Positions 11,839 through 32,000 of a DNA stretch of 32,000 bases are shown here, piece by piece. Origin of the DNA: Candidatus Poseidoniaceae archaeon. Its GTDB lineage: Archaea; Thermoplasmatota; Poseidoniia; Poseidoniales; Poseidoniaceae. A program made the translations under genes and the position numbers. Under the pieces are notes generated by a model. That model made no database searches. It saw only the letters and a list, made by a program, of their open reading frames with translations, and was not told the DNA's origin. Where the stretch lies: assembly GCA_943789275.1 (NCBI GenBank), contig CALSTM010000003.1:540001-572000 (forward strand). The letters run 5' to 3'. How positions within the stretch are numbered: position 1 is the first letter of the stretch; the number at the start of each line of letters is the position of its first letter.

Positions 11839-11880
11839 GAAAAAACATCCTTTGATAAGCCGTTGTCCTGAAAACGGTGT

Positions 11881-13098: not shown

Positions 13099-13104
13099 GG
13101 TGGT

Positions 13105-14358: not shown

Positions 14359-14433
14359 ACAACGGCCATTTTTCCCGACCGATGAAGAAAAGAAGTCGGC
14401 CCTCTTGGACAAGGTATGGCCAAGGAGGTGAAG

Positions 14434-15225: not shown

Positions 15226-15232
15226 GTTTGGC

Positions 15233-15275
15233 GGGGCTTTCGTTCGGAAAACGACCCAAAAGTGTGTTATTTTTT
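15233..15275 (+). terminator. hairpin plus T6 tract downstream of the MBL gene
   Basis: The hairpin is GGGGcuuUCGUUcggaaAACGAccc (15233-15257), followed by TTTTTT at 15270-15275. Oligo-T tracts are the usual archaeal termination signal. Confidence 0.35.
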
Positions 15276-15460
15276 ACTGAAAGAGCGTATAAAGCGAGAC
15301 CCTTTATAATCTCGTATTTAATTCACAGAACGATTGAAAACTCTACCTGCAAATCTCATCGACGGTCATACTTATGAGGGGGACTCGGACTAACGCACAT
15401 TATCGCGCAAGTCCCGCCCGGAACTTTGACGATTCGACCAGAACCCAAGAGGCCACCAAC

Positions 15461-16702: not shown

Positions 16703-16775
16703 TTGCCTATATAGCGAAACAATACAATTCTGAATGCTTCGGTGTGCTTATATCCAAAAGGTAGGTGGGCGGATT

Positions 16776-17342
16776 ATGAGCACAGAAAACAGCGACGCTG
16801 ACGCCACCATTGTTTCGATGTTGTTGAACCCATCTCGCACCATGGCAAACTGGTACGCTGGTATCGGTATATTCGGTATCTTCTTGGCCGTATTGAACAT
16901 CATTGGAATGGTTCATCCAACCTATCACCTTTCGTGGGGTGGATTGTTTACCTTTGAAGCAATGAATGCGGCTTTTGAGCCAAAATCTGACGGCGTTCAA
17001 GTGGTCCTTTCTGACTTCATCTTCATCGGCCTATGTATCGCTTTGGCTGGCCTTGGAATTCGAACCTTCGGCAACGACGAATCCGGAATCGCTGGCTGGT
17101 TCAAGAGCATCCTTGTCAACGACACCTGGCCTGCGTTGGTGGACCCAGACATCGGCGGATGGAACAAACTCTTCGGCGCTTGGTCTGTCTTGCTCGGAAT
17201 TATTTTCTACTTCTATTACGGTATTGTTAACACCGGATGGATTGATGTTGGAGTTTATTCCGTGAGCATCGCATTGATTGCTTTCGGACTTGGTTTGCTC
17301 ATGGCTGCCAACGCACCTGAAGGCGATGACAACTTGGACTGA
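16776..17342 (+). CDS. integral membrane protein, about 4 TM segments, unknown function
   Basis: Four hydrophobic stretches are present: WYAGIGIFGIFLAVLNIIGMV, FIFIGLCIALAGLGI, LFGAWSVLLGIIFYFYYGIV and VYSVSIALIAFGLGLLMAA. ATG 16776 is preceded by AGGTAGGTGGG. Its stop is 2 nt from the convergent GT2 stop. Confidence 0.6.
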   Translation: MSTENSDADATIVSMLLNPSRTMANWYAGIGIFGIFLAVLNIIGMVHPTYHLSWGGLFTFEAMNAAFEPKSDGVQVVLSDFIFIGLCIALAGLGIRTFGNDESGIAGWFKSILVNDTWPALVDPDIGGWNKLFGAWSVLLGIIFYFYYGIVNTGWIDVGVYSVSIALIAFGLGLLMAANAPEGDDNLD

Positions 17343-17344
17343 GT

Positions 17345-18472
17345 TCACTTCTGTTGTTGACCGAACATCGGTTTGTGTCCATTCTTCCCTTGAATGGCGT
17401 CTTTTATCCCAAGCGCTAATCCTTTCCACAATGCGATGCTCCAACGCATTGTCAAATTTCGAATTTTGAGAATCTCGAAGATGGAGAACTTACCCGCTTT
17501 CAAAGCACCACGGTTCACCACACCCAGCGGTCCTCGCCACAGAATTATTTCATGAATGACCATGAGTATCAGCGTGAACAACAGCAGCTTTGTTTGCCAC
17601 CAAGTTTGAGCCACCTCCCACGACCAATCGGGTTGTGTGATAAACGAAGTGAGGAACGGAATTCCAGAGACAAGGGCCATGAGCCACAGGGGGAAGACCG
17701 CAAGCACCACCGTAGAACTCCCGATGAAGTCCAAACCTGGGCCCGTTCGCTTTCGTCGAGGATAATGGCGAACGATACGGGTGTGGGCTCGAGCATCTCT
17801 GCATCGCTTAGCGAGGAACCTTGAAGATTCAATTTCAGGAACGTGATGGACAACAGCATCAGGTGCGTAGACAATCGTTCCACCTTCTGCCATTAATCGA
17901 AGACTTACCTCCATGTCTTCGGCATGGTACCATTTCGGATCAAATCCTCCAATTCCGAGTAGACTTTGGCGTTCAAACATCGAACATGGCCCGTTGGCTA
18001 AACTGGTTTGTCGTGGCCTTGAACGGTATTTCGTGGCGATTTCCACCGAACGAACACGGCTGACAATATCGCCCGCATGTTCGAAAACAGTTCGTCCAGT
18101 TACAGCGACGACTTTCTCGTTCTCATCGATGGGTTGGGTGTTTTCGACCAGTTTTGAAATCCAGTCCGGTTCGGGCCGCACATCAATGTCGGTGATGGCA
18201 ATCCAATCGCCTTTCGATTCATCCACTGCCCATTGTCTGCCTGACGAGAGGCCTTTGGGTTCTTGCGTCAAGATGCGAGTTGGAACTTCCGCCTCGAGGT
18301 CATGCCATGCGAGTAATTTTTTCTTTGAGCCATCGCTTGAACCGTCATCAACCGCAATAATTTCGATTGGGCGGTAGGTTTGGGCTTTGAGTGATTCGAT
18401 GCAACCGTCAATCCAATCCACACCGTCTCGCACGCAAACGGTAAGACTGACCATTGGATTTTGCTCCGGCAT
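17345..18472 (-). CDS. family 2 glycosyltransferase with C-terminal transmembrane region
   Basis: The GT2 signature is VSLTVCVRDGVDWIDGCIESLKAQTYRPIEIIAVDDGSSDGS. An acidic TDID motif and HAEDMEVSLRL (ED motif) are present, followed by about 4 TM helices (VVLAVFPLWLMALVSGIPFL, LLLFTLILMVIHEIILW...). ATG 18472 shares its A with the upstream TAA (TAATG), and GAGGT lies about 8 nt upstream. The track start at 18598 overlaps the upstream gene by 127 nt. Confidence 0.88.
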   Translation of the reverse strand: MPEQNPMVSLTVCVRDGVDWIDGCIESLKAQTYRPIEIIAVDDGSSDGSKKKLLAWHDLEAEVPTRILTQEPKGLSSGRQWAVDESKGDWIAITDIDVRPEPDWISKLVENTQPIDENEKVVAVTGRTVFEHAGDIVSRVRSVEIATKYRSRPRQTSLANGPCSMFERQSLLGIGGFDPKWYHAEDMEVSLRLMAEGGTIVYAPDAVVHHVPEIESSRFLAKRCRDARAHTRIVRHYPRRKRTGPGLDFIGSSTVVLAVFPLWLMALVSGIPFLTSFITQPDWSWEVAQTWWQTKLLLFTLILMVIHEIILWRGPLGVVNRGALKAGKFSIFEILKIRNLTMRWSIALWKGLALGIKDAIQGKNGHKPMFGQQQK

Positions 18473-19491
18473 TATACAACCTCGAACAGTGAAAGGAGAT
18501 GACGGCATCGCTGTTTGACCGCTAAAGTTGTGTATTGTAGAACGACACCCGTTCGAGGTTGCCCGTACATGACCACCGTGCCAAGTGGAGCCAAGCAATG
18601 AATCACCAACGGCGCCAAATCTTCTTCACCGTCAACTTCCAAAACGACAGAATCCTCGGCAACGAGGGCTTGAGCAATGGCCTGATTGAGTGAGGGGGTG
18701 AGAAGCCCAGCAGGATTGACAGCAGTCAAATGGTGATGAAAACGCTTGGTATTCACTTTCAAATCCTCTTCCAATTCCGTACGTTTTGTTTGTCCATCGA
18801 TGAGTGCAATATCGGGTGTTAAGCCCATGTCAAGCATTGTTTTCGTGGTAACATCTCCGACCGTAATGATGGCCCCATGGGGTGACGGCAAGCCGTCCAA
18901 TGCAGCAGCCATTCCGATTTCAGGGTCGTCTTCTGGCCCTTCAAACAGCGTACCCATCGGTGTTTTGAGTTCATAATCGAGTGCTGCAGCCATTCTGAGA
19001 TTCGCTTGACGTAATTCAAGTGGCATCCATGGATGTCCTTCACGGTCCATGTGTCCGTTTCGGACGGCTGAGGAACTGATGATACCACCTTCGAATCCAT
19101 CAAGGTGCATGACTTCAATGACATGCAACGGCAATAATCCGTTGGAGGCTCGTTGTTCGTTGATCGCATCGCACATGCCGCGAGTCTCAGGAGTCGCTAC
19201 AATGGCGTCAGCAACCGTATGCTTAGGTGCTGGTCCGAAGTTATCGTTGAGTTGATGAACGGTAATTTTGCAGCCTGATTGAGCATCAGCCCAATCGAGT
19301 AATTCGTTTCGACGGTCCTCAAAGGATTGAACGAATAGAGATTTTGATTCGGCCATAAGGTCCGAAGTGATGTGGATTTCGACCTGTTCTGCATCTTTGC
19401 TGGCAGCATTCAACAGTAAACGATGACCTGCATGGAGCCGGTCAAAAGTCCCCCCGACGAGGCAACAGCGAAAACGCCGTGAGGAGGTCAT
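18472..19491 (-). CDS. fusion of archaeal phosphopantetheine adenylyltransferase (PPAT) and DUF359-type GTP-dependent dephospho-CoA kinase (DPCK)
   Basis: The N-terminal ~155 aa form a cytidylyltransferase fold: CLVGGTFDRLHAGHRLLL...ATPETR...ISSSAVRNGHMDREG. The C-terminal ~170 aa carry DUF359 motifs as I recall them: IITVGDVTT..., ALIDGQTKR, AVNPAGLLT, VDGEEDLAPL and VVMYGQPRTGVV. Confidence 0.85.
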   Translation of the reverse strand: MTSSRRFRCCLVGGTFDRLHAGHRLLLNAASKDAEQVEIHITSDLMAESKSLFVQSFEDRRNELLDWADAQSGCKITVHQLNDNFGPAPKHTVADAIVATPETRGMCDAINEQRASNGLLPLHVIEVMHLDGFEGGIISSSAVRNGHMDREGHPWMPLELRQANLRMAAALDYELKTPMGTLFEGPEDDPEIGMAAALDGLPSPHGAIITVGDVTTKTMLDMGLTPDIALIDGQTKRTELEEDLKVNTKRFHHHLTAVNPAGLLTPSLNQAIAQALVAEDSVVLEVDGEEDLAPLVIHCLAPLGTVVMYGQPRTGVVLQYTTLAVKQRCRHLLSLFEVV

Positions 19492-19540
19492 AATTCGTTG
19501 TGGGATAAGCGGCTCTTTGATTGCATCGCCTCAAAACGAG

Positions 19541-19865
19541 AAAAACAACGCAGTTTGGCATGAAGTGAAATCAGCAGGAGCTGTACCCCGACGCGTAACG
19601 GCCCTTTTCATCGCAATGCTCGAGGGCCTGACCCAGCGTCAGGGTTTATGCTGTCCAATAGGTTGGTTGTCTCGTGTTCATCCTGTCGTCGCACGAGGAC
19701 CCATTACCTACCGGTTGGTTTACCGCCTTGCACCGAAGGTCATTCCCCGAAGGGTCACTTCAGTCTTCGATAGCGGACCGTACCATTGGTATCGGACTTC
19801 ACAGCAATTTTCACAGTAGCTCTGCCAGATGTTGCGGGTACGGCAATCGATTCCTGCGGCCTACC
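19541..19865 (-). ncRNA. about 320-nt structured RNA; best guess RNase P RNA, with SRP (7S) RNA or another class not excluded
   Basis: This is a 392-bp gap with no credible ORF. On the minus strand there are two C(UUCG)G tetraloop hairpins (GACCCuucgGGG, ACCuucgGU). Long-range end pairings are present: GCAGGA/UCCUGC and GUACCCG/CGG(G)GUAC. Segments loosely resembling RNase P conserved regions occur in the expected order: GUGAAGUCCG, GGUAAAC...GGUAAUGGG, GGAUGAAC. An AT-rich TATA-like AAATTAGAATAA lies upstream (reverse complement of 19885-19896). A U5 + U4 terminator follows (reverse complement of 19533-19545). I could not draw a canonical P4 helix, and the ends are approximate. Confidence 0.5.
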
Positions 19866-19883
19866 CCTTTTCAAGTCATCGAA

Positions 19884-22415
19884 TTATTCTAATTTCGATG
19901 CAAAGGAGCGGGCATAGAGCAATGCACCGATTTCAGCATCCCCTTGATGAAGAACATTCAATCCCATTGCGGGCCATGAATCAACCGAGCGAGCGAGCCA
20001 TCCTACCAGTGGATGCGTGCGTCCATAATGCACCGATTCATTGCGCTCGGAAGTGGCAAGCATGTCATAGACATCAAGCAGTGCTGGTTTTCCAGCATGG
20101 TCCTCAAGCAACAAAATATGCAACACATCATCGAGCATGATTCGCCGTGAAGGGTAGGAGGTTGACCATGCAGGTAGACCGCCGCGTTCACCGGTTGGAC
20201 GCGTGAGCAGTGCAGGCCAAGGCAACACTGTCGAGGCTAACCATCGTCGCCCAGAAGTTGAAGACAACTGAATCTGTAACCATTCACTGGCCCACGCCCT
20301 CCACCAAGGAGATGGCAGTAGACTCATGACTTGACGCAGGAACTCCGGTGTCATCGGTTCACCCAATTCCATGTGTTGGAGCAAAGTACCCCACACATAG
20401 AGTGTTGAATCTTGTGGATGGAGTTTTGCTGCAGCCTTGCATTTCATCAAACAGTTTTCGATATGGTCCGGCAAAGGGGTGCCAATCGGGAACAGTGATT
20501 CCAACACCCGTAAGGTTTGATGCGGGGCATCAAGCCAACGAATACACGATTGTTCAATCAATTCATGAAACTCTTCTGGCATTTGATTTGCTGCTAAGAG
20601 GAGGGAAGTTGCCATCCACGAGCCGAGTTCCTCGTTTTCCAGGAAGTGTTGATACTTGAGAATGGATTCAACATTGTTGGTAAACCGTTGTCGCGTTTTC
20701 TCGAGTGCTCGGAGCGTCCATTCAGGAGACGCTTTGGGCATGGCGCTGATGAGTGTCGCCGTTTCGCATTGTTCAATGGGTAACAAATCAGCCCAACCTG
20801 ATGGTAAAACAGAACGCAAACGAATCCAACGTGAAGTTCGATGCTCCATCGGCGTAGCAATCCATGCTGCTAACGGCGTACTGCTCTCATTCAAATTGGC
20901 CCATTGTTCATCTCCCTGTGGATAAAAAGCAAGTGCTCGCCAAATTGACCGCTGCAGTTCAAGGTTCGATTCTGTTGCTGAAAACAAGTTCTGATCAAAG
21001 CCATCGTTTTGGTTCCAAGCAGCAAGCAACTCCTTGGCAGATAACGGTACACGCTCATGAATCGTTTGCGACGAACGTTCCACGGGTGCTTGCAAAAGTG
21101 AGAGAGGGATATTCGTGCCTCTTCGCATCTCAATGACGGCTTTCGTCAAGGTCTTTTCACTTCGAATCACGGCGGTGGATGACCTCAATTTTTGATATTC
21201 ACCTTCGGATGTAACCAGAATACGGCACCTTCCAGTGGCAAGAACTTGTTCGAGAATCTCTCTGTTCTCTTCGATTGCATACGGCCATTCAATCACACAA
21301 TCTCTGCTTGATTCAAAAGCGAACCATTCAAGCAAGGCGTTTGCTCCTTTAGCGGAGACTCCTGAGAAATTCATGGTGCTCATGCTGATTGATTCACGCC
21401 ATTCTGCTTTACCAAAATCCGTTAGTAACTGCCGCTGAACGGCCAGAGGGGGTGGCGATTCAGTAGCATTCAGTAAATGCCGACTTAATTCTTTGAACTT
21501 CATGATTCTTTTTTCATCGGCCATTCGTGGATGCCGTGACTGCAACCAGTATTGTATCGCATCAATAGGTAGATAGCGTCTTGAACGCTGTTGCGGACGA
21601 GCTTCAAACACTAAGGCTTCTGCACTCATTGCATTGAGTGCTAATGAACGGTTGACAGCGACGGTAAGATGAGCATGGATACCTTTTTTTGGAGAGATTC
21701 GTAAGTCCGTACCTGTTGCAGTGCCGAGTGTATACTCGCCTTGTGTGAGTAGAGACGGTAACTCCGCAGCCTTTTCCGGTTCTTTGAACCATGTCCCTGG
21801 GCTCAGCAACCATTCGCTCCTCGAATCGAGTAGTGTCGCTCGAATCAGTCCAATACGGTCGACTTCTTCGGTCCATTCGGTGAGTGTTCCTCTCGTGGAT
21901 AGCGAACGAGGGGCTTCTGTCCTCTCAAAATTAGAGAGCGTGTACCACTGGATCTCTCCACTTCTTTGAACGGCCCAGCGCCCCCCTTGCTTTCCGCTGG
22001 AGAAAGAGGACATGCTCCTACGCTCGGTGATGCCTTGGTTCGGTAGGGAGAGCAGTCTTGAACGGGGGGGTTTCACATAACCAAGCAGGACGTGAGGGCC
22101 GTCGAGAGTCAGAACGATGCCCTCCGCTTGGGTTGGTCGTTGCGACACGAGTTTGCGAGCTCTGGCCAGAGCATCTTCGGTTAATCTGGCTCGCCCTGCT
22201 TCGTTGAGTCGATGTTGAGCACCACGTATACTCCCTTGCTCGTCGCGACTCACTTCTCCTCGCTCCCGCAACTGCCGAAGCGCCAGTGAAGCGTGAGGCA
22301 TCCGTAAGTTGAGCGACTCGGCTATACTGGAAACCGTGCCACTGCCGTCAATCAACCAATTCAGAACACGCCGTTGATGGCCGCTTCGAATCTGTTTTAC
22401 TGACATCAAAGTCAC
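19884..22415 (-). CDS. 843-aa protein of unknown function with N-terminal winged-helix (MarR/ArsR-like) DNA-binding domain
   Basis: The start is GTG at 22415, with AGGAG 6 nt upstream. The N-terminus is HQRRVLNWLIDGSGTVSSIAESLNLRMPHASLALRQLRERGEVSRDE. The remaining ~750 aa have no P-loop, nuclease or metal motif that I can recognise. The C-terminal half is Trp/Leu-rich and probably helical. Confidence 0.8.
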   Translation of the reverse strand: MTLMSVKQIRSGHQRRVLNWLIDGSGTVSSIAESLNLRMPHASLALRQLRERGEVSRDEQGSIRGAQHRLNEAGRARLTEDALARARKLVSQRPTQAEGIVLTLDGPHVLLGYVKPPRSRLLSLPNQGITERRSMSSFSSGKQGGRWAVQRSGEIQWYTLSNFERTEAPRSLSTRGTLTEWTEEVDRIGLIRATLLDSRSEWLLSPGTWFKEPEKAAELPSLLTQGEYTLGTATGTDLRISPKKGIHAHLTVAVNRSLALNAMSAEALVFEARPQQRSRRYLPIDAIQYWLQSRHPRMADEKRIMKFKELSRHLLNATESPPPLAVQRQLLTDFGKAEWRESISMSTMNFSGVSAKGANALLEWFAFESSRDCVIEWPYAIEENREILEQVLATGRCRILVTSEGEYQKLRSSTAVIRSEKTLTKAVIEMRRGTNIPLSLLQAPVERSSQTIHERVPLSAKELLAAWNQNDGFDQNLFSATESNLELQRSIWRALAFYPQGDEQWANLNESSTPLAAWIATPMEHRTSRWIRLRSVLPSGWADLLPIEQCETATLISAMPKASPEWTLRALEKTRQRFTNNVESILKYQHFLENEELGSWMATSLLLAANQMPEEFHELIEQSCIRWLDAPHQTLRVLESLFPIGTPLPDHIENCLMKCKAAAKLHPQDSTLYVWGTLLQHMELGEPMTPEFLRQVMSLLPSPWWRAWASEWLQIQLSSTSGRRWLASTVLPWPALLTRPTGERGGLPAWSTSYPSRRIMLDDVLHILLLEDHAGKPALLDVYDMLATSERNESVHYGRTHPLVGWLARSVDSWPAMGLNVLHQGDAEIGALLYARSFASKLE

Positions 22416-22490
22416 CTTATCTCCTGGTTACTGCCTCTCATTGTTAAATGTTGCACTTTAGTGCATGTAATTGTTACAAATAGTTACACA

Positions 22491-22501
22491 TTTCCACTGG
22501 A
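22491..22501. promoter_or_regulatory. single mini-ORB-like motif (TCCAGTGGAAA on minus strand)
   Basis: tttccactgga at 22491-22501 is the reverse complement of TCCAGTGGAAA, the core I recall for archaeal origin recognition boxes. A degenerate same-orientation copy (ttttctacgggaag) lies at 22583-22596. With only one good copy, function as an origin is unproven. Confidence 0.25.
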
Positions 22502-22678
22502 GATAGTTGGTTTTTACTTACATGTCGAAAAGAAGGTGTGAAAATAACACCCCATTTGCATACGAAATGTAACTATAATCGATTTTCTACGGGAAGGGTT
22601 ATATGAGCACCCTCGGTCATCTGTCTTAGTGGCCCCAACCCTCTATGGGAGATGGCCTCATGACAGGAGGAAATACAC

Positions 22679-23008
22679 ATGAAAACAACCAGAATCAGAG
22701 AGAAAATCAAGAAATTCTTAGGAGACCGACCACGTAACACTGCCGAGATTCTGGAACACATCAACAGCACCATGCGACACGGCACCACCAGCCAACAGCT
22801 CGGTAACGTACTCTCCAAGGATAAGGACATCGTCAAGGTCGGCTACATCAAGCGCTCAGGAATTCTTTCTGGCGGATACGATATCTGCGAATGGGCGACC
22901 CGTAACTGGGTTTCTTCGAACTGCCCTGGGTGGCAAGAAGGCACACCGATCATCATCGATAACGACGGCAACGTTACCACCGGTAACAGCACCGACCGTT
23001 CTCTCTGA
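22679..23008 (+). CDS. 109-aa winged-helix-like small DNA-binding protein, unknown function
   Basis: AGGAGG occupies 22665-22670, 8 nt before the ATG. The sequence KIKKFLGDRPRNTAEILEHINSTMRHGTTSQQLGNVLSKDKDIVKVGYIKRSG fits a helix-turn-helix plus wing pattern. It is divergent from the 843-aa gene. Confidence 0.7.
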   Translation: MKTTRIREKIKKFLGDRPRNTAEILEHINSTMRHGTTSQQLGNVLSKDKDIVKVGYIKRSGILSGGYDICEWATRNWVSSNCPGWQEGTPIIIDNDGNVTTGNSTDRSL

Positions 23009-23087
23009 TTCGGGAAATTGGTCGCGCCAGTTTACTACCATCACCCTTTGACGAGGGATTCAATAGGGATGAGTATTTGGCCACGGC

Positions 23088-24362
23088 ATGGATAACTTGG
23101 ATAAGACTGAGAACTACACCGTCCGCGACATCAATTTGGCTGACAAAGGAGCACTCCTTGTCGACTGGGCACGAGCCCGTATGCCGGTTATGGCCAAAAT
23201 CAAGGAAGAAGCTGAGCGCACCAAACCTCTTGCTGGAATGCGCGTTGCAGGATGCCTTCACGTCACCAAAGAGACTGCAGTTCTCATTGAAACCATCCGG
23301 GCAGCAGGAGCAGAAATCTCCTGGTCCGGTTGCAACCCTCTTTCAACTCAAGATGAAGTGGCCGCTTGGTTGGCTGCTGAAGGATACTCCGTTCATGCAT
23401 GGCACGGTCAATCCAGTGACGATTTCTATTGGTGCATTGACCGAACACTTGAGTTCAAGCCGACCCTCACGCTCGATGACGGCGCGGATCTGATTGTCCG
23501 TGTTCACACTGATAAGTTAGAATATGCACCTGGTGTCATTGGCGGTACTGAAGAAACAACCACTGGAGTTCACCGACTTCGTGCCATGGCAGCTGCTGGC
23601 GACCTCCGTTATCCAGTCATCGCCGTCAACGACGCAGTTACCAAGTGGGATTTCGACAACGTTTACGGTACCGGTCAATCAACCATTGACGGTATTCTTC
23701 GAGCGACCTCTGTCCTCATTGCAGGCAAGACATTCGTTGTTGCTGGTTTCGGCCACTGTGGAAGTGGACTTGCTATGCGTGCTCGTGGAATGGGCGCCAA
23801 TGTCGTCATCACTGAAGTCGACCCTCTTCCTGCTCTTCGAGCGGTTATGGAAGGTTACAGTGTGATGACCATGGATGAGGCAGCGAAAATCGGAGACATC
23901 TTCTGTACCGCAACAGGAATGGAAGACGTCATCACCGGTGCTCACTTTGATTCAATGAAAGACGGAGCCATCATCTCCAACACCGGTCACTACGATTGTG
24001 AAATCAAGATTACCGATTTGGAAGAGCGTGCATCTTCCGTTCGAACGATTCGAGACAACAACGAAGAGTTCCTGATGCCGGATGGTCGACGCATTTTCTT
24101 GCTTGCTCGTGGCCGATTGGTGAACCTCGCTGCTGCAGAAGGCCACCCATCAGAAGTCATGGACATGTCGTTTGCAAACCAGTTCCTTTCGCTTTGCCGC
24201 TTGGCCAAAGAAGGTGGTTCGATGGGTAAGGAAGTGTATGACATCACGAAGGAGCAAGACCAAGATCTCGCAACAACGAAACTTGACACACTCGGTTTCA
24301 GTATCGATGTCTTGACCGATGCTCAACTCGCCTACCTTGACGACTATACCGTCGGAACATGA
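23088..24362 (+). CDS. ahcY: adenosylhomocysteinase (S-adenosyl-L-homocysteine hydrolase)
   Basis: 424 aa. Family motifs include VRDINLADKGALLVDWARARMPV, SWSGCNPLSTQDEVAA, the NAD fold VVAGFGHCGSGLAMRARGMGANVVITEVDP, and GHYDCEI. Confidence 0.97.
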   Translation: MDNLDKTENYTVRDINLADKGALLVDWARARMPVMAKIKEEAERTKPLAGMRVAGCLHVTKETAVLIETIRAAGAEISWSGCNPLSTQDEVAAWLAAEGYSVHAWHGQSSDDFYWCIDRTLEFKPTLTLDDGADLIVRVHTDKLEYAPGVIGGTEETTTGVHRLRAMAAAGDLRYPVIAVNDAVTKWDFDNVYGTGQSTIDGILRATSVLIAGKTFVVAGFGHCGSGLAMRARGMGANVVITEVDPLPALRAVMEGYSVMTMDEAAKIGDIFCTATGMEDVITGAHFDSMKDGAIISNTGHYDCEIKITDLEERASSVRTIRDNNEEFLMPDGRRIFLLARGRLVNLAAAEGHPSEVMDMSFANQFLSLCRLAKEGGSMGKEVYDITKEQDQDLATTKLDTLGFSIDVLTDAQLAYLDDYTVGT

Positions 24363-24383
24363 GTTTTCTTCTGTGACTCATCT

Positions 24384-24402
24384 CCGACAAGGGTCGGTTT
24401 TT
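24384..24402 (+). terminator. hairpin plus T5 downstream of ahcY
   Basis: The hairpin CCGACaaggGUCGG is followed directly by TTTTT (24398-24402), 22 nt after the ahcY stop. Confidence 0.45.
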
Positions 24403-24460
24403 GGCCTACTTCTGCCGCTTCCGGCGTTGAGTTTAAGGCCAAAAAGGTCGACGTTTCATC

Positions 24461-24751
24461 ATGGTCTCAGAATCAACTGCATTTCTGATTGATGTTGTGA
24501 TAACTCTTGTCAGTGCAGTACTGATTTTGGGCACATTGTATCAATATTTTTTCAAAAACAAAAATTTTATTCAAGCAATCACCGTTCCTTTTGGTAATCC
24601 AACCTCTTTGGATTCGACGGATTCTGAGCCAGTCGAGTCAGTTGATCAAGTTACATTTACGAAACGCAAAAAGCGGTGGTTGATGGCAATCATTGTAGTC
24701 TTTAACATCGTCTTTTTCTATGCTGTATACGTTTACGTTCTACCCTACTGA
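24461..24751 (+). CDS. small two-TM membrane protein (96 aa), unknown function
   Basis: Two hydrophobic helices (FLIDVVITLVSAVLILGTLYQYFF and WLMAIIVVFNIVFFYAVYVYVL) flank an acidic loop. The Shine-Dalgarno motif is weak (AAGGT), and the gene is more AT-rich than its neighbours. Confidence 0.45.
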   Translation: MVSESTAFLIDVVITLVSAVLILGTLYQYFFKNKNFIQAITVPFGNPTSLDSTDSEPVESVDQVTFTKRKKRWLMAIIVVFNIVFFYAVYVYVLPY

Positions 24752-24803
24752 AGGAATTGAAATGATCAATATCTTCTGGTGAACTGGCATCCACCTGAAC
24801 GAA

Positions 24804-25730
24804 TCAGTTTCCTTCGAAGATGGCCATGGCCTGTTCAACCGAGGCACCTTCGCATATGATGGCATGACAAGCCGCAGTCATTCGCACTGCAGACTCAGTA
24901 TCCCTTTGGTGAATGTTTCGACCGGTCGCAGCACCCATGCAGTTGCCAACACTCATTTGAGCGTGAAGGCGTTCCAAGAATTCCAAAGCAGGAAGAGAAC
25001 CGCCACCTGAGCAAATAATTCCAGTTCGTCCAGCAGCCTGTGCAGCGATAGCGAGGGATTCCGGCTGGGTCATTCCTTCGAATGCACGAGGATAGTTGAC
25101 CTTCGCAAAATCAGCACCAATACAGGCAGCAACGCCAGCAGCACCGGCGATAAGTTGTGGGTCTTTTTCATCGGCGACAGCTTGTCCACGTGGGTACATC
25201 CACACAACAGCAATCATACCAAGTTCGTGTGCTTGGCGAATGAATTGAGCAGCCTCGGTCATCATGTCGTGTTCATATTCACTGCCGATGTAAATGGTGT
25301 AGCCAATGCCAACAACGTTGATGCCGTTGTGCGTCAAAGCCATGACGTCGTCCATTTCCCACATTGCCTGGGACACAGGGTCGCGTTGACTGGTTTTGAC
25401 CATGTGTGATTTTGAATTGAGTTTCACCAAATACGGCAAATCAGGGTAATCTCGGGCATACTGTGAGATGAGGCCGAGTTGCCCTGCAAGAACACCAATG
25501 GTTCCAGCATCGTGACAGCGTTGACCGATTTCAAACAAATGACCTGGGTCGTTTGAGGTGATTGGTATTTTGTCGCCGCCGTCGTAGAAATCATCGTTGA
25601 GGTGTTCGATTTTTTGGTCGCAAGCAAACAGGTTCATTTTGCCCGTTCCAGCCGTTGCAGCATCCATATTTTGGATATAAATGTCAATCAAGTCGTTCGG
25701 CACATCTGCGGGGACATTGTACTTCAACAT
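24804..25730 (-). CDS. fba: class I fructose-bisphosphate aldolase, DhnA/FbaB family (the ADH-synthase paralogue is not excluded)
   Basis: Motifs are collinear with E. coli FbaB as I recall it: GTGKMNLFACDQKIEH, LVKLNSKSH, GYTIYIGSEYE...AHELGMIAVVWMYPRG, the Schiff-base region IGADFAKVNYP, IICSGGGS and GAATGRNIHQ. Confidence 0.9.
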   Translation of the reverse strand: MLKYNVPADVPNDLIDIYIQNMDAATAGTGKMNLFACDQKIEHLNDDFYDGGDKIPITSNDPGHLFEIGQRCHDAGTIGVLAGQLGLISQYARDYPDLPYLVKLNSKSHMVKTSQRDPVSQAMWEMDDVMALTHNGINVVGIGYTIYIGSEYEHDMMTEAAQFIRQAHELGMIAVVWMYPRGQAVADEKDPQLIAGAAGVAACIGADFAKVNYPRAFEGMTQPESLAIAAQAAGRTGIICSGGGSLPALEFLERLHAQMSVGNCMGAATGRNIHQRDTESAVRMTAACHAIICEGASVEQAMAIFEGN

Positions 25731-25912
25731 CGTTCACCTTGAGTTGGGCGAAACGCACTGAGGACTTCAAGACTACGGCAGGATTCTTACGAGTCATTTC
25801 CTCTTTTTTTGAGATTTATTGACTTGTGGGGGAAAAATGTTCATTCGAAAACATGATTCCCGCCTTTCATGACTGGTAAACAGTATTACCTAATGCCGAT
25901 TAATGTAGGCCT

Positions 25913-28900
25913 ATGCCCAGCATACGCCATGCGAATTTCAACCGAGCCGTCGTTTTATCGCTCTTGATGATGATGATGACCCAAGTTGGTTATCTTGAAT
26001 CCATGAACCCGTGGACAAACGGCGAAGAAACGCTCGACTCGAACGAAGTGATTTCACATACGTCTGCTGCAACGTCCGTGATGTATGGGAACAATTCGTT
26101 GTGGGCTCCTGACGGTAGTCAAATATTCAATGCTGGCGATGAAATGATGGCCGTTACATCCGATGTTGTGTTTTATATAGGAGCCACTAATCAAAACCCT
26201 CAAGACTTTGAGAAATGTTTGGCTGCATACAACTCCTCCAACATGACGAGATGGATTCCAAACATTGCAGGTCGATCAAATACCTGCTCTAGTAGTGTAG
26301 TAGGCCAGTCGATTGCTGAATTCAACTTCATTACTCAAGTCGATGGACTCACATTTTTTGTCATGAAGGCCTCCCCAGGCAGGCAACAGATTCATGCCTA
26401 CAATCCTGCAAACGACACGGTGTATCTTCACGACACCTCCCGTACTGGAAAAACTATTCTTGATAGTGTTGCAATTGGCAGAACAATATACTCACTGCAA
26501 AACTACCCCTTTATGATGACAGCATACAACATTGACAATGGTTCTTCATGGGATATCTCAACTTCATCCCAATATTTTGTTGGTTTAAACGCCGTAGGAG
26601 GCAAAATTCTAGCTTTCAACAACAATACACAACAACCATCGGGTCCGAATAATTGCAGCTACACAGGTTCATGTTATGAGCCATGGATTTACGATCCAGC
26701 CAACAACACATGGTTCAGGCCAACAAGAGGAAACGAAATCATCAACAGGCCCATTGCGACAAGTGATTCCAAAGCCCTTGTCACCAATGGACAGATGTTT
26801 TGGGCTGACACTAACTACACCTACGGAATGGGTGCGTGGGTGTTTGATTCATCCAACAACACATATTGGATGCTTGATGCAAATGCGTCAACAGGGATGT
26901 CAACTATCACAACTGGACGATCTTCAGCAATTCGTTCTGGAACATCAATTTTCTATCTTACCAGACCTGCGTATTCGGTTTCCGGGCAAACCTTGTATGG
27001 CCTCGATCTTTGGGGTTACAGCACTGTCAATTCGTCGAGTTGGCGTCTATCGAACATCACGGAATTGCACCAACCTGATGCTCAATATGGATGTTCACAA
27101 CAGCTTGCCGGACTCGCCAATGGCGATTTTGTGATGTCCTTCGGGCGGGGTACGGGTTGCAACACGGTAGAAGTCGTATTTTATTCTTTAACCAACGACA
27201 CGGCATGGCAAGTTTCTGGACTCGACTCTCCAAGCGATACCTCAAAGGTTTATTCTTTTCAGGGAAATGATATGGGACTATTGGGGGTTTATGGGAACAC
27301 TGTTTATCTGAAGGGTAAAACTGCATACCCTTCCTATGAGCATGGACTCATTGCTTATGACGCTACGAATGGTTCATCGTATTCAACAACGGTTACGGGA
27401 GGATTCATCTCTGGTATTACCAGTAACCAGCCCGTACTCGGAAACGGGGGTCAATTCGTTTTCACGATGGGAAGTTATACCTGTGACTGTAACCCTTCTT
27501 GGGCAGATAGCTCCAGATATTCGTTTGCAGTCTGGACACCAACCGCTATCACCGTTAGCGATGCATGGAATCTCACACCTGGTCAGCGTATCGATGGACC
27601 GATTACAGGAGGTTTGGGCGGCGCATCGGATTCGGGTGTAGGCGTTCAAAATCTAACTGCCAGTGCCGAAGGTGCAGAACTCATCATCGACGAGGCCATG
27701 ACCAACATCACCTTCCAATACAATTCCAGTGCGGCAAGCGGCTCAGGCGGCGGCTCAGGCGGCATGACCAACGTCACCGGTGCAACCTGCAGCGTTTCAC
27801 CTTCTCTTCCAACCGGCCTATCCATCGACAGCGGCACGTGCACCATCAGCGGTACACCTTCAGTTGCAACAACGAACACAACTTACACGGTCACGGCGGT
27901 CATGAGCGGTGTGACCTACCAGACAACGGTATGGCTCTCAAGCGCTTACCTCCCACTCACGCCAAGTGTCGAAGGTGCAGAACTCATCCTCGATGAGGCC
28001 ATGACCAACATCACCTTCCAGTACAACGCCAGTGCAGCAAGCGGCTCAGGCAGCGGCTCGGGCAGCGGCGGCATGACCAACCTCACCAATGCAACAAGTT
28101 GTGTTGCTTCACCAAGCCTACCAACCGGCCTGTCCATCGACAGCAGCACGTGCACCATCAGCGGTACACCAACGGTTGCGACGACAAACACGACCTACAC
28201 GGTCACCGCCAACATCAGCAACGTAACCTACCAGCCAACGGTATGGCTCTCAAGCGCTTACCTACCACTCACGCCAAGTGTCGAAGGTGCAGAACTCATC
28301 CTCGATGAGGCCATGACCAACATCACCTTCCAGTACAACGCCAGTGCAGCAAGCGGCTCAGGCAGCGGCTCAAATCAATCAAGTTTCGTCAATAACATCG
28401 GACTGAGAACCACATCGGGTTCAGCCACTCAAATGATCAATGGGACAGCCATCACACCGATTGAATTCTCTCTTGAATGGGACAATTTCTCCCTGCCGAG
28501 TAATCTGAGTTCCAATGAAAAGGTGACATTCCCGTTCGACCATTCGTTCAACGACACATCGTCCACGCCCATGGAAAACTCAACCGCTTCGAACCTCACC
28601 TACGACCGACACGGCCGAGAAATGCACGCCCTGGATGATGAAATTGAATACGGTTGGAGTGCGACAAATCGCAGTGAATTGGCAATCAATTCAAACACCA
28701 TTTCACTCTCTCTTTGGGTAAAGCCAACCAATGTTGGGACAGTGCAAAACATCATCGACAACCACCCACAATACGACCTTAGAATAGATGCAAACGGGGC
28801 GCTCAGCTTCAGAATACGTCAAACTGGCAACGGAGCGTGGAACGACCATTATTCGAGCATACAACTCGAGAATGATGTGTGGTATCACATTGGCGTATCC

Positions 28901-31900
28901 GCAACGTACAGCAGCGGTTACGTGGTGAATTTCTACGTAAATGGGTCGTCTGATGTCACGCGAACATCATCAGGTACTCAATTTACATCAACGTCAGGGA
29001 CTACTTTAGGCCTCAGCAGTGCCGATAGTTGGTATGATGGCTTTGATGGTGTTCTTGATGACCTGTACATATACGACGGACTCCTCTCTGCATCGAATTT
29101 TGCCACACTGATGGATGTCGGTGAAATCACGTGGGATATTTCGCCCGCTCTTCCGAGTGAATTGTCGCTGGATACAATCACAGGGACAATCACTGGAACA
29201 CCTCCTAGCTCCCAAGGCGCAGGCCAATACACGGTGTATGCCAACTCCTCCACGACTTCCTATTCGCGAACATTCAACCTGAGTTTGAATTCATTCATGC
29301 CCACCGTCACCGGTGCAACATGTACGGTTTCACCTTCCCTTCCAACCGGCCTGTCCATCGACAGCAGCACGTGCACCATCAGCGGTACACCAACGGTTGA
29401 GACGAGCAACACGACCTACACGGTCACCGCCAACATCAGCAACGTGACCTACCAGGGCAGCGTGTGGTTGTCCACCTCGACGTTCGGCACCATCACCTCA
29501 GCGGTGGAAGGTGCGGCGCTCAACTTGGGTGAAGCGATGACCCCGATCACGCTCAATTACACGGTGAACGTCAACGCTTCATCTGGTTCTTCAGGATCTT
29601 CCGGTTCCAGTGGAGGCTCGGGTTCAAGCGGCGGCTCTTCGAGTTCCTCGTCCTCTGTTTATGCAAACAACAAGCTGTCTGCTGGATCTTCCCACACCTG
29701 TGCCATCCTTGACAACGGCGACCTGAAGTGTTGGGGGCTGGGATGGCACGGACAGTTGGGCGATGGAGGAAGCGGGTTTAGCTACGACACCAACGCACCT
29801 TCATCCACCGCCATCAACCTCGGCAGTGGCCGAACGGCCGTTGCTGTGTCTGCTGGAGGTTCCCACACCTGCGCCATCCTTGACAACGGCGACCTGAAGT
29901 GTTGGGGGTATGACGGCTACGGACAGTTGGGCGATGGAGGAAGCAACACGAACACCAACGCACCTTCATCCACCGCCATCAACCTCGGCACGGGCCGCAC
30001 GGCCGTTGCTGTGTCTGCTGGAGGTTCCCACATCTGCGCCATCCTTGACAACGGCGACCTGAAGTGTTGGGGGCGGGACAATTACGGACAGTTGGGCGAC
30101 GGTGGAAGCAACACGGACACCAACGCACCTTCATCCACCGCCATCAACCTCGGCACGGGCCGAACGGCCGTTGCGGTGGCTGCTGGATCTTACCATGAGT
30201 TTACCTGTGCCATCCTTGACAACGGCGACCTGAAGTGTTGGGGGCGGGACACTTCGGGACAGTTGGGCGATGGAGCAGGCACCAATAACCTCAACGCACC
30301 TTCTTCCACGCCGATTGACCTTGGCAGTGGCCGAACGGCCGTTGCGGTGTCTGCTGGAAGTGCCCACGCCTGCGCCATCCTTGACAACGGTGACCTGAAG
30401 TGTTGGGGGTCTAACTCCTTTGGGTCGTTGGGCGATGGAGGAAGCCACGCGTACACCAACGCACCTTCATCCACCGCCATCAACCTCGGCACGGGCCGAA
30501 CGGCCGTTGCTGTGTCTGCTGGAAATGGCTTCACCTGCGCCATCCTTGACAACGGTGAGGCGAAGTGTTGGGGGTATGACTACAGTGGACAGTTGGGCGA
30601 TGGAGGAAGCAACACGAACACCAACGCACCTTCATCCACCGCCATCAACCTCGGCACGGGCCGAACGGCCGTTGCGGTGGCTGGTGGAAATGGCCACAAC
30701 TGCGCCATCCTTGACAACGGTGAGGCGAAGTGTTGGGGGTATAACTCCCAAGGAGAGTTGGGCGACGGTGGAAGCAACACCAATCAGGGTTCACCGGTAG
30801 CTGTTTCTGGCAGCAACACCTGGGATGCCACGACCACCATCGCCACTTGGGAAACACACCCTGCTTTACCAGCGGGCATGAGCATCTCAGGCGGTACGAT
30901 CAGCGGCACACCTTCGGTCTATGCGACCAATCAAACCTACACGATTTACGCCAATAAGAGCGGTTATTCAACCACGCACGAGTTGTACTTTAGCGTGGAT
31001 ACAGACAATGCGCATACCGTCGTTGAAAATCAGACGATTGATCCAATTGGCTTCCATCCTCCGTTCTGGAACGGTACGACCGCTTGGACGGTCTCACCTG
31101 CCTTGCCGGGCAACCTCTCCATCAACGGAAGCACCGGTGAAATCACCGGAACGGTCAACGGAACGCTGACCAACACCACCTACACGGTGACAGCGACGCA
31201 CAGTGGCTCAGGCGCTGCAACGGAAACCTTCTCGTTCAACTTGCAGAGTCTTGCTGATTACGATGGCGACGGTCTTGCCAACGACTTGCCAAGCGATTAC
31301 GATGCAGCTGAAGGGCCAACCTCTGGTCTTGTTGCTGACGATGATGACGACGGCGACGGCCTTGCCGACAGCATCGAAACGAATACTGGAACCTACATTG
31401 ACGCCAGCGATACGGGCACCGACCCATTGAATCCAGACACCGACGGTGATGGTATCTGCGACGGACCAAATGCAGTACCTCCAATCTGTGTTGCAGGTCC
31501 AGACATGGACCCGAACGGTGAGAGTTTCCCACCAACCTTGGTGGCCATCAACAACACCGCCATCTCAACGCTTGCTCCATACTTGGCAGTAAGCGGTGGA
31601 ACGTACGAAATTGCACCCGACTTGCCAGCAACCCTGTCACTTGACCCCGCAACCGGTGAAATCACCGGTACACCGACCGAAACCATCACCAACACGACCT
31701 TCACCATGTGGTCGAACAACTCCAACGGTGATTCTCTCTCGTGGAACTTCACCATTGAAATCTTGGAAGACAGCGACGGCGACGGAATGCCAAACGAACT
31801 TCCGGGCGATTATGATCCAACCAACCCTGATGCACCTGGCCTTGTGGAAGACACTGACGATGATAACGACGGACTTTCCGACACCAACGAATCAGAGATT

Positions 31901-32000
31901 GGCACCAATCCACTCAACCCAGATACAGACGGCGACGGTATGTGCGACGGACCTGTGGCTTCGCCACCAGACTGCGTTGCTGGCCCTGACGCCTTCCCGC
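25913..32000 (+). CDS. giant secreted or surface multidomain protein, 3'-truncated by the window (more than 2,029 codons)
   Basis: This ORF is not in the supplied track. The frame is open from the TAA at 25901-25903 to the window end; I read it codon by codon. The N-terminal signal or anchor is MPSIRHANFNRAVVLSLLMMMMTQVGYL. Domain order: Kelch-like repeats, He_PIG-type Ig modules, LamG, 7 RCC1 blades, TSP3 blocks. NxS/T sequons are very frequent. Confidence 0.9.
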   Translation, partial: MPSIRHANFNRAVVLSLLMMMMTQVGYLESMNPWTNGEETLDSNEVISHTSAATSVMYGNNSLWAPDGSQIFNAGDEMMAVTSDVVFYIGATNQNPQDFEKCLAAYNSSNMTRWIPNIAGRSNTCSSSVVGQSIAEFNFITQVDGLTFFVMKASPGRQQIHAYNPANDTVYLHDTSRTGKTILDSVAIGRTIYSLQNYPFMMTAYNIDNGSSWDISTSSQYFVGLNAVGGKILAFNNNTQQPSGPNNCSYTGSCYEPWIYDPANNTWFRPTRGNEIINRPIATSDSKALVTNGQMFWADTNYTYGMGAWVFDSSNNTYWMLDANASTGMSTITTGRSSAIRSGTSIFYLTRPAYSVSGQTLYGLDLWGYSTVNSSSWRLSNITELHQPDAQYGCSQQLAGLANGDFVMSFGRGTGCNTVEVVFYSLTNDTAWQVSGLDSPSDTSKVYSFQGNDMGLLGVYGNTVYLKGKTAYPSYEHGLIAYDATNGSSYSTTVTGGFISGITSNQPVLGNGGQFVFTMGSYTCDCNPSWADSSRYSFAVWTPTAITVSDAWNLTPGQRIDGPITGGLGGASDSGVGVQNLTASAEGAELIIDEAMTNITFQYNSSAASGSGGGSGGMTNVTGATCSVSPSLPTGLSIDSGTCTISGTPSVATTNTTYTVTAVMSGVTYQTTVWLSSAYLPLTPSVEGAELILDEAMTNITFQYNASAASGSGSGSGSGGMTNLTNATSCVASPSLPTGLSIDSSTCTISGTPTVATTNTTYTVTANISNVTYQPTVWLSSAYLPLTPSVEGAELILDEAMTNITFQYNASAASGSGSGSNQSSFVNNIGLRTTSGSATQMINGTAITPIEFSLEWDNFSLPSNLSSNEKVTFPFDHSFNDTSSTPMENSTASNLTYDRHGREMHALDDEIEYGWSATNRSELAINSNTISLSLWVKPTNVGTVQNIIDNHPQYDLRIDANGALSFRIRQTGNGAWNDHYSSIQLENDVWYHIGVSATYSSGYVVNFYVNGSSDVTRTSSGTQFTSTSGTTLGLSSADSWYDGFDGVLDDLYIYDGLLSASNFATLMDVGEITWDISPALPSELSLDTITGTITGTPPSSQGAGQYTVYANSSTTSYSRTFNLSLNSFMPTVTGATCTVSPSLPTGLSIDSSTCTISGTPTVETSNTTYTVTANISNVTYQGSVWLSTSTFGTITSAVEGAALNLGEAMTPITLNYTVNVNASSGSSGSSGSSGGSGSSGGSSSSSSSVYANNKLSAGSSHTCAILDNGDLKCWGLGWHGQLGDGGSGFSYDTNAPSSTAINLGSGRTAVAVSAGGSHTCAILDNGDLKCWGYDGYGQLGDGGSNTNTNAPSSTAINLGTGRTAVAVSAGGSHICAILDNGDLKCWGRDNYGQLGDGGSNTDTNAPSSTAINLGTGRTAVAVAAGSYHEFTCAILDNGDLKCWGRDTSGQLGDGAGTNNLNAPSSTPIDLGSGRTAVAVSAGSAHACAILDNGDLKCWGSNSFGSLGDGGSHAYTNAPSSTAINLGTGRTAVAVSAGNGFTCAILDNGEAKCWGYDYSGQLGDGGSNTNTNAPSSTAINLGTGRTAVAVAGGNGHNCAILDNGEAKCWGYNSQGELGDGGSNTNQGSPVAVSGSNTWDATTTIATWETHPALPAGMSISGGTISGTPSVYATNQTYTIYANKSGYSTTHELYFSVDTDNAHTVVENQTIDPIGFHPPFWNGTTAWTVSPALPGNLSINGSTGEITGTVNGTLTNTTYTVTATHSGSGAATETFSFNLQSLADYDGDGLANDLPSDYDAAEGPTSGLVADDDDDGDGLADSIETNTGTYIDASDTGTDPLNPDTDGDGICDGPNAVPPICVAGPDMDPNGESFPPTLVAINNTAISTLAPYLAVSGGTYEIAPDLPATLSLDPATGEITGTPTETITNTTFTMWSNNSNGDSLSWNFTIEILEDSDGDGMPNELPGDYDPTNPDAPGLVEDTDDDNDGLSDTNESEIGTNPLNPDTDGDGMCDGPVASPPDCVAGPDAFP
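27665..28373 (+). repeat. in-frame tandem repeat, 2.3 copies (303 nt, 312 nt, then a partial ~94 nt) encoding linker plus Ig-like module
   Basis: Units start at 27665, 27968 and 28280 (g[ct]cgaaggtgcagaactcatc...). Copies 2 and 3 are nearly identical over their shared length. The half-unit 28108-28245 recurs almost identically at 29323-29460. Confidence 0.9.
28524..29127 (+). other. LamG / concanavalin-A-like lectin module inside the giant ORF
   Basis: The translation NSNTISLSLWVKPTNVGTVQNIIDNHPQYDLRIDANGALSFRIRQ...LENDVWYHIGVSATYSSGYVVNFYVNGS...FDGVLDDLYIYDGLLS follows the Laminin_G_3 pattern (W.k....., W.hva.t.d......lYvdG, .iDevriy). Confidence 0.65.
29678..30811 (+). repeat. seven tandem RCC1-type beta-propeller blades (165 or 171 nt each)
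   Basis: Units start at 29678, 29849, 30014, 30179, 30350, 30515 and 30680. The consensus is SAGxxHTCAILDNGDLKCWGxxxxGQLGDGGSxxxTNAPSSTAINLGTGRTAVAV, which matches the RCC1 repeat. Long stretches are identical at the DNA level (gccatccttgacaacggcgacctgaagtgttggggg). Confidence 0.9.
31256..31523 (+). repeat. thrombospondin type-3-like Ca-binding Asp-rich block 1
   Basis: The translation is DYDGDGLANDLPSDYD...DDDDDGDGLADSIETNTGT...DPLNPDTDGDGICDGPN...CVAGPDMDPNG, which gives DxDxDGxxD loops. Confidence 0.75.
31769..32000 (+). repeat. thrombospondin type-3-like Ca-binding Asp-rich block 2 (truncated by window)
   Basis: The translation is DSDGDGMPNELPGDYD...DTDDDNDGLSDTNESEIGTNPLNPDTDGDGMCDGPV...CVAGPDAFP. 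It parallels block 1 in order and spacing. Confidence 0.75.

Follow-up and report, generated by a model that had tools for sequence, protein, structure and literature searches.

A giant open reading frame encoding a predicted modular surface protein in a Poseidoniaceae archaeon

Among uncultured plankton, few groups are as abundant as the Marine Group II (MGII) archaea. Here we describe a giant gene in a 32,000-nucleotide stretch of a Candidatus Poseidoniaceae (MGII) genome (contig CALSTM010000003.1, positions 540,001 to 572,000; hereafter the window). From ATG 25913 on the forward strand the frame is free of stops for 2,029 codons, through 31999, and a TAA at 25901-25903 lies in frame just 5' of this ATG (translation of 25892-32000). 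With the window's base composition, the probability of meeting no stop over 2,029 codons is ~3e-42. An earlier note, made from the letters alone, had described a frame open from this TAA to the last base, and translation bears it out; an in-frame stop or a frameshift was looked for in 25913-32000 and neither is present. The mechanical list of open reading frames (ORFs) holds only short off-frame or antisense ORFs here. As the earlier note had supposed, the giant ORF is absent from the list because it has no stop inside the window and the list omits ORFs that run off the source.

The encoded polypeptide is modular (Table 1). The motifs quoted in the earlier note are all found (YNPANDTVY, YDPANNTWF, FDSSNNTYW, YSLTNDTAW and YDATNGSSY; LPTGLSIDSxTCTISGTP three times), and of the domain families that it had named RCC1, He_PIG and Laminin_G_3 pass their profile cut-offs. 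In a Pfam scan of the whole protein He_PIG (PF05345) reaches 150.3 bits against a cut-off of 24, in seven stretches, the best of which (aa 694-770) corresponds to profile positions 13-83. In each of the first two He_PIG modules a Ser/Gly-rich loop separates the LPTGLSIDS core from the first strands. These two runs (aa ~607-617 and ~708-720) fall within He_PIG matches, so they are loops inside modules and not the linkers between modules for which they had been taken; a true Ser/Gly linker sits ahead of the RCC1 propeller. In the DNA, 27659-28059 and 27961-28371 are 87% identical.

The RCC1 propeller, which had been called complete with seven blades, is supported by RCC1_2 (PF13540; 203.1 bits against a cut-off of 22) and RCC1 (PF00415; 114.3 bits), each in seven stretches, by WD40_RLD (PF25390; 205.2 bits against a cut-off of 150) and by seven CAILDNG blades. 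These blades (29676-30780) repeat in the DNA with a period of ~165-171 nt and 81-86% identity. When the scan is confined to aa 826-1089, the module read as LamG lectin-like matches Laminin_G_3 (PF13385) at 72.4 bits (cut-off 27.6; E 5.7e-20); the whole-protein scan does not list this family. Its sequence matches in the PDB are 5hon, the C-terminal domain of an arabinanase (E 6e-8), and 4qvs, a protein with an S-layer domain. The internal tandem repeats at 27659-28371 and 29676-30780 carry a risk of assembly collapse and are a substrate for unequal recombination.

Towards the window end He_PIG modules alternate with two blocks of the thrombospondin type 3 (TSP3), which together hold six D-x-D-x-D-G-x-x-D loops. 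TSP3_bac (PF18884) reaches 33.2 bits in block 2 (aa 1949-2029), against a cut-off of 25; block 1 (17.7 bits) and the whole-protein scan (23.6 bits) stay under it. The eukaryotic TSP_3 model (PF02412), whose cut-off is likewise 25 bits, scores 8.9 and 6.5 and was rejected. The alternation of TSP3 and Ig-like modules proposed earlier thus holds, with TSP3_bac rather than PF02412 as the matching family for the last block.

Table 1. Features of the giant open reading frame, in window coordinates.
Feature	Coordinates	Strand	Basis or remark
Open reading frame	25913..32000	+	2,029 codons, cut by the window end; about the 5' ~60% of a gene estimated at ~3,390 codons
Conserved leader, aa 1-42 (MPSIRHANFNRAVVLSLLMMMMTQVGYLESMNPWTNGEETLD)	25913..26038	+	Basic n-region, hydrophobic helix, QVGYL, acidic stretch
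Probable divergent Kelch-like beta-propeller, aa ~52-550	26066..27562	+	Eight repeats, AF2/Foldseek, profile link
Two tandem He_PIG Ig-like modules, aa 583-683 and 684-787	27659..28273	+	Pfam, motif map
Third, partial first-strand He_PIG unit	28274-28387	+	Follows the two tandem modules
LamG / concanavalin-A-like lectin-fold module; Pfam core aa 923-1061 (28679-29095)	28388..29119	+	Laminin_G_3
Two He_PIG Ig-like modules, aa 1070-1128 and 1129-1222	29120..29578	+	Pfam, motif map
Ser/Gly-rich linker, aa 1223-1247	29579..29653	+	Direct reading of the sequence
Seven-blade RCC1-like beta-propeller, aa 1248-1640	29654..30832	+	RCC1_2, RCC1, WD40_RLD, seven CAILDNG blades
Two He_PIG Ig-like modules, aa 1641-1778	30833..31246	+	Pfam, motif map
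TSP3-type calcium-binding block 1, with a Cys pair	31247..31507	+	Three D-x-D-x-D-G-x-x-D loops: aa 1782, 1811, 1842
He_PIG Ig-like module, aa 1866-1950	31508..31762	+	Pfam, motif map
TSP3-type calcium-binding block 2, cut by the window end	31763..31999	+	Three loops: aa 1953, 1982, 2004

The N-terminal part is less easily placed in a family. No Pfam family, Kelch models included, matches aa 1-576 at E<=10, a scan of the whole 2,029-aa protein against NCBIfam gave no match, and a PDB sequence search with the N-terminal ~550 aa gave nothing meaningful. The region contains eight repeats of the form Y-[ND]-x-x-N-x-[ST]-x-[WY] (aa 106, 163, 205, 260, 311, 369, 424 and 482), 42-58 aa apart. An AlphaFold2 (AF2) model built from 33 sequences (pLDDT 70.7, pTM 0.77), which supersedes a weak earlier one from 17 sequences (pLDDT 56), consists throughout of four-stranded sheets. 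Foldseek returns only propellers for this model; the best E values, ~2e-9, are to Kelch types, and the highest query TM, 0.46, is to the eight-bladed DPP-IV propeller. The homologues of this domain are confined to Poseidoniales; a word-indexed search gave 17 proteins spanning most of it, and an exhaustive profile search yields 372 representatives at E<=1e-3. Pfam marks one protein, P0081, as a genuine Kelch protein (Kelch_KLHDC2, 788 bits), and the family profile matches it too (E 1.4e-18, 15 stretches), a single link summed from many weak stretches.

Tandem repeats, four-stranded blades and propeller-only Foldseek matches in the predicted model agree with the structural definition of Kelch. 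Based on this model and the remote profile link, aa ~52-550 are probably a divergent Kelch-like propeller with eight blades, so that the earlier description of ~500 aa as Kelch or propeller-like stands for the fold but finds no Kelch match in Pfam. The likeness to the Kelch propellers of Keap1/KLHL, of the galactose-oxidase type and of Attractin lies in the repeat length, the four-stranded blades and the Foldseek ranking. Unlike these, the domain escapes the Pfam Kelch models, mostly has a single Gly in place of the usual Gly-Gly doublet, probably has eight blades and carries a conserved N-x-S/T sequon within each blade signature.

Ahead of the propeller stands the leader. The earlier note had read the N-terminus as basic plus hydrophobic, a signal or anchor; both features are present, but the segment is a leader conserved across a whole family and not a generic signal. 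Its hydrophobic helix (aa 12-30, 25946-26002; aa 8-30 in the AF2 model) is the sole hydrophobic segment among the 2,029 aa. It is followed by an invariant QVGYL and an acidic N-x-W..EETLD stretch, giving the overall pattern M-x-S-x-R-..-hydrophobic-MTQVGYL-[DE]-x-x-N-x-W-..-EETLD. In an alignment of 17 sequences the leader is much more conserved than the remaining protein and the invariant columns are concentrated there; M1 is invariant across homologues, which supports ATG 25913 as the start. About 46 of the best 150 representative matches cover the leader alone (profile positions 1 to ~55). A genome scan found the leader at the beginning of 69 ORFs in 71 Poseidoniales loci, and at least four unrelated kinds of module come after it: the propeller, an immediately adjoining RCC1 part, a He_PIG strand or some other unit. 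In ~19 loci the 126-nt leader DNA is 85-95% identical and the next 300 nt are unrelated.

No model in Pfam or NCBIfam covers the leader, and the string QVGYL is absent from the searchable literature. The basic n-region and hydrophobic h-region are Sec-type features; downstream of the h-region there is no obvious A-x-A cleavage site. We also considered an archaeal class III (pilin-like) signal. The [KR]-[GAS] site that such signals have just ahead of the hydrophobic stretch fits the window leader (NR-A|VVL) and the NK-S / NK-A subtypes, but in the common subtype AEVRTPLILSIL T-P stands where cleavage would occur. Because one common subtype lacks the [KR][GAS] site, a class III signal is unlikely. 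One leader-bearing archaeal surface-protein gene (L053, CAXQWT010000008.1) is filed under a metagenome-assembled genome (MAG) named Salipiger bermudensis, a bacterium; its contig is probably a binning contaminant.

The ORF is part of a real gene that is under constraint. ENA contig L001 (ERZ10646685:contig_2305) is 99.9% identical to window 15913-32000 (16 kb), and two NCBI MAGs, L003 and L004, are 98-99% identical over the ORF. In L003 the frame is open for 2,195 codons, and its only indels relative to the window are two in-frame ones; dN/dS between the two is 0.35. A further locus, L005, was left out of this comparison, its architecture differing beyond 1.9 kb so that the global alignment was unusable. 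Relatives in other MAGs have uninterrupted frames of 2,927 codons (complete) and of >3,545 and >3,904 codons (running off the locus).

Two of the copies are broken. L001 has one extra T after window position 28784 (L001 12873; AGAATAGATG vs AGAATTAGATG) that shifts the frame, and with further frame breaks its gene is called as products of 987 + 1140 + 1023 + 165 aa. The public catalogue entry P0001 ends at 987 aa because of this extra T, and public protein catalogues hold the giant protein as fragments only. L004 has a separate frameshift near codon 2000. By its names and indel pattern the L001 assembly looks long-read, and on the same grounds the MAG contigs appear to be long-read assemblies too.

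The 3' end and a candidate C-terminal anchor, which the earlier note had left to be sought beyond the window, are found in L001 and relatives; a 52-mer taken from the window end has no exact match in the genome-contig collection searched. Reading across its frame breaks, the gene in L001 would end at 20173, which corresponds to ~3,390 codons, about 1,360 of them past the window. L002, a JGI contig of a related strain and not the window's own contig, starts inside TSP3 block 2 and runs uninterrupted for 1,515 codons to a stop. It encodes, in order, TSP3_bac and He_PIG modules, a transmembrane (TM) helix (WMWCFPCLLILLLLLLVTLLLG), a beta-rich domain, Lys/Ala/Glu repeats and three helix-hairpin-helix (HhH) units (Cdd1, PF11731). 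The C-terminal order is the same in L001, where the TM helix reads WGYICCPLLLLILLAVFLIFMP, and in the intact proteins P0105 (2,859 aa) and P0119 (2,398 aa). All four thus show a type-I layout, with a C-terminal TM helix and then a tail, beyond the window itself. The predicted cytoplasmic tail (L002 2900-4547; L001 18700-20173) comprises the beta-rich domain, 150-200 aa of K/A/E repeats and 2-3 HhH. Two known structures match the HhH unit: 9wqv_a (E 8e-12), through the C-terminal domain of a complex I 41-kDa subunit, and 8yy9_O, which is reaction-centre protein O. A Pfam scan of the last 1,515 aa of L002 shows neither RTX repeats nor a type I secretion system (T1SS) signal, and it reveals no kinase, cyclase or other signalling domain. 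For a PGF-CTERM / archaeosortase anchor no PGF motif is present, the C-terminus of the relatives being a ~500 aa tail that ends in HhH domains.

We then analysed the distribution of N-glycosylation sequons. Over the 2,029 aa there are 59 N-x-S/T sequons against 36.8 +/- 5.1 expected, and none of 2,000 shuffles reaches 59. The excess is uneven: sequons are about twofold enriched in the Ig/LamG and Ig/TSP3 parts, and the RCC1 propeller has none against 7.0 +/- 2.4 expected.

Taking these features together, we consider it fairly likely that the ORF is the 5' part of a giant, heavily N-glycosylated type-I membrane adhesin or capture protein of Poseidoniaceae. We infer its export, topology, glycosylation, Ca2+ stiffening and ligand binding from the sequence. 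The conserved leader would direct export and the single C-terminal TM helix would anchor the protein; since the anchor is C-terminal, the N-terminal modules would lie farthest from the cell. The stalk would consist of He_PIG Ig-like modules alternating with Ca2+-binding TSP3-type loops, stiffened by seawater Ca2+, and would present three candidate ligand-binding heads, the eight-bladed Kelch-like propeller at the tip, the LamG fold and the seven-bladed RCC1-like propeller. Their most likely ligands are organic matter in polymeric or particulate form, or other cells, and the tail with its beta-rich domain, Lys/Ala/Glu-rich helix and 2-3 HhH could couple to an intracellular partner.

An adhesion or capture function is plausible and matches what has been inferred for the 'thrombospondin' genes that are widespread in Poseidoniales (Rinke et al. 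2019, PMC6461757). Those genes come from the same taxon and share the TSP3-type Ca2+ repeats and the inferred adhesion; the paper flags them by KO annotation only (PMC6461757). In the searchable literature the full architecture of leader, Kelch-like propeller, LamG, RCC1, TM helix and HhH tail is undescribed, there is no meaningful link between MGII and RCC1, and adhesion appears in MGII genome papers only via archaella, flotillin and 'thrombospondin'.

Several points weigh against this assignment. The TM helix and tail are deduced from a frameshift-ridden, 99.9%-identical contig and from relatives that are 83% identical or remoter. A leader that is not cleaved would tether the giant protein at both ends. 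The folds involved (RCC1, Kelch, LamG) serve generically as scaffolds for interaction and do not specify a ligand. Finally, rapid modular exchange suits the role of a variable coat or a phage receptor equally well.

The evidence for such exchange comes from comparison of the gene copies. Homology between the window and two species-representative MAGs, L003 and L004, begins with the start codon. The 10 kb upstream of it show 72-85% identity between the two MAGs and no similarity to the window's upstream DNA. From the ATG to ~6.0-6.4 kb, L001/window, L003 and L004 are 98-100% identical in 400-nt windows (window 25913-32000 against L003/L004 10001-~16400; L001 compared over 10001-21700), and this tract ends almost exactly at the window end, the drop in identity falling at the equivalent of window ~31,960-32,360. 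Past the tract the identity between L001 and L004 drops along the gene to 82%, 74% and then 63%; the gene tail is 70-83% identical and the syntenic downstream genes 70-79%. L005 shares the first 1.9 kb, i.e. leader and propeller, at 94% and then has a different middle. A nucleotide identity of 100% beside flanks of ~75% is beyond what purifying selection can produce, and therefore reflects either recent exchange between species or chimeric contigs. The 6.2-kb tract thus points to a very recent exchange of a distal-ectodomain cassette, with one junction in the leader, or to assembly chimerism. No virus-borne relative was found among IMG/VR contigs.

These patterns bear on an alternative in which the protein is a variable structural coat, a glycocalyx or S-layer substitute, whose diversification and not substrate binding is selected, the exposed distal part being targeted by viruses or grazers and therefore swapped among lineages. 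It would account for the near-identity of the 5' 6.2 kb in MAGs from two further species with flanks that diverge from each other and are unrelated or ~74% identical to the window genome, for the switch of L005 to another middle after leader and propeller, for a conserved leader and tail around highly variable ectodomain module sets, and for the high sequon density. However, there is no evidence of Poseidoniales without another envelope protein, a lectin fold and two propellers are typical of binding proteins, and the mosaic pattern could be an assembly artefact; we regard a primarily structural coat as unlikely.

Less probable still is a transmembrane receptor or linker that passes the signal of an outside ligand via the TM helix to the helix and HhH units, e.g. 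as a tether to DNA or a membrane complex. The ~480-550 aa tail is conserved in L001, L002, P0105 and P0119, and the HhH matches to 9wqv_a and 8yy9_O are consistent with such a role. No signalling domain was found in the L002 tail, though, the matched structures demonstrate no function for the HhH-type domain as far as the tools used show, and the paralogue P0117, with the same leader, has a short tail only. Coat and receptor are both compatible with adhesion and do not exclude it.

That the ORF is a pseudogene or an assembly artefact, with collapsed or chimeric repeats yielding a spuriously long frame, is very improbable: the fragmented ENA copy, the L004 frameshift and internal DNA repeats of 81-87% identity, which could mislead assemblers, speak for it, but the window and L003 are open throughout, the ENA break within the window region comes down to one extra T, in what looks like a long-read assembly, and the uninterrupted relatives, the dN/dS value and the minute chance of such a frame all argue against it.

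We tentatively propose a further reading, possible though on present evidence rather doubtful: the leader and the TM/HhH tail would be the fixed ends of a cassette system in which ectodomain sets are swapped among paralogues and species by homologous recombination. The 6.2-kb tract would be one recent cassette, and the leader an undescribed, order-specific sorting or processing signal. If this is true, the exposed part of Poseidoniales giant surface proteins is rapidly replaceable.

The modules themselves are standard, and giant modular surface proteins are already known. The giant Ca2+-dependent adhesins of marine bacteria (Marinomonas MpIBP, LapA/SiiE-type RTX) have an Ig-like extender with Ca2+ sites and distal ligand-binding modules; the bacterial RTX giant adhesins are anchored in the outer membrane at the N-terminus and secreted by type I secretion via a C-terminal RTX signal. 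The working principle, a long Ca2+-dependent Ig-like extender carrying distal binding modules, would be shared by the archaeal protein. Its host is an archaeon, and it would differ further in its distal N-terminus, C-terminal TM anchor and large cytoplasmic tail; no RTX/T1SS signal was found by Pfam in the L002 C-terminus. In the sap S-layer family of Campylobacter fetus, recombination exchanges homologues that have a conserved 5' region in common. Here, too, paralogues have a conserved 5' segment and differ downstream, and the break in homology coincides exactly with the start of the gene. In contrast to sap, the exchange would involve genomes that differ at species level and may in part be an artefact of assembly, and the analysis gave no evidence of a single promoter, of an invertible segment or of programmed switching. 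With archaeal S-layer glycoproteins (PGF-CTERM or C-terminal TM) the protein has in common a C-terminal membrane anchor and, as predicted here, N-glycosylation at the surface; it lacks PGF-CTERM, has a ~500 aa cytoplasmic C-terminus with HhH, and its ectodomain is a series of heterogeneous binding modules and not a lattice-forming domain. The order-specific leader, the uncatalogued Kelch-like family, the type-I anchor with HhH tail and the apparent cassette exchange appear to set it apart from described adhesins.

The gene supplies a concrete, complete architecture for one of the largest MGII surface proteins, and two uncatalogued sequence families are defined, the Poseidoniales surface-protein leader and the divergent Kelch-like propeller. 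The identity of the distal 6 kb across species, if true, marks the cell surface as a site of very recent gene exchange, and such exchange of surface genes would bear on virus-host and particle-attachment ecology.

The neighbouring genes in the window encode Cdc48, Orc1/Cdc6, a TrmB-family regulator, a DUF359 protein, a phytoene/squalene synthase, an AdoHcy hydrolase and a DeoC-type aldolase. The Cdc48, Orc1/Cdc6 and TrmB neighbours, and homologues of the giant protein from Poseidonia, Poseidoniaceae and Poseidoniales MAGs, confirm the archaeal origin assumed in the earlier note. A second giant surface-protein gene (He_PIG, RCC1; called as 1,343 aa) lies at L001 21880-22964, ~1.7 kb downstream of the first; its leader is just loosely similar (…LLLAVLMVSMSLSVGLVELNKAPWLAEDGESELEE). 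On the reverse strand of the window, an 843-aa ORF at 19884-22415, conserved in L001, has no Pfam match above threshold and a faint N-terminal winged-helix (TrmB/ArsR-like) signal (E ~0.1). A 503-aa ORF at 7212-8723 (-) gives sub-threshold matches to FAD_binding_7 (18.7 bits) and DNA_photolyase (15.4 bits) and may be a divergent cryptochrome/photolyase relative. Finally, the GT2 glycosyltransferase ORF at 17345-18598 (-), 417 aa from a TTG start, overlaps the upstream DUF359 gene at 18472-19491 (-) by 127 nt; this long TTG start is probably spurious, because the ENA gene call is 375 aa.

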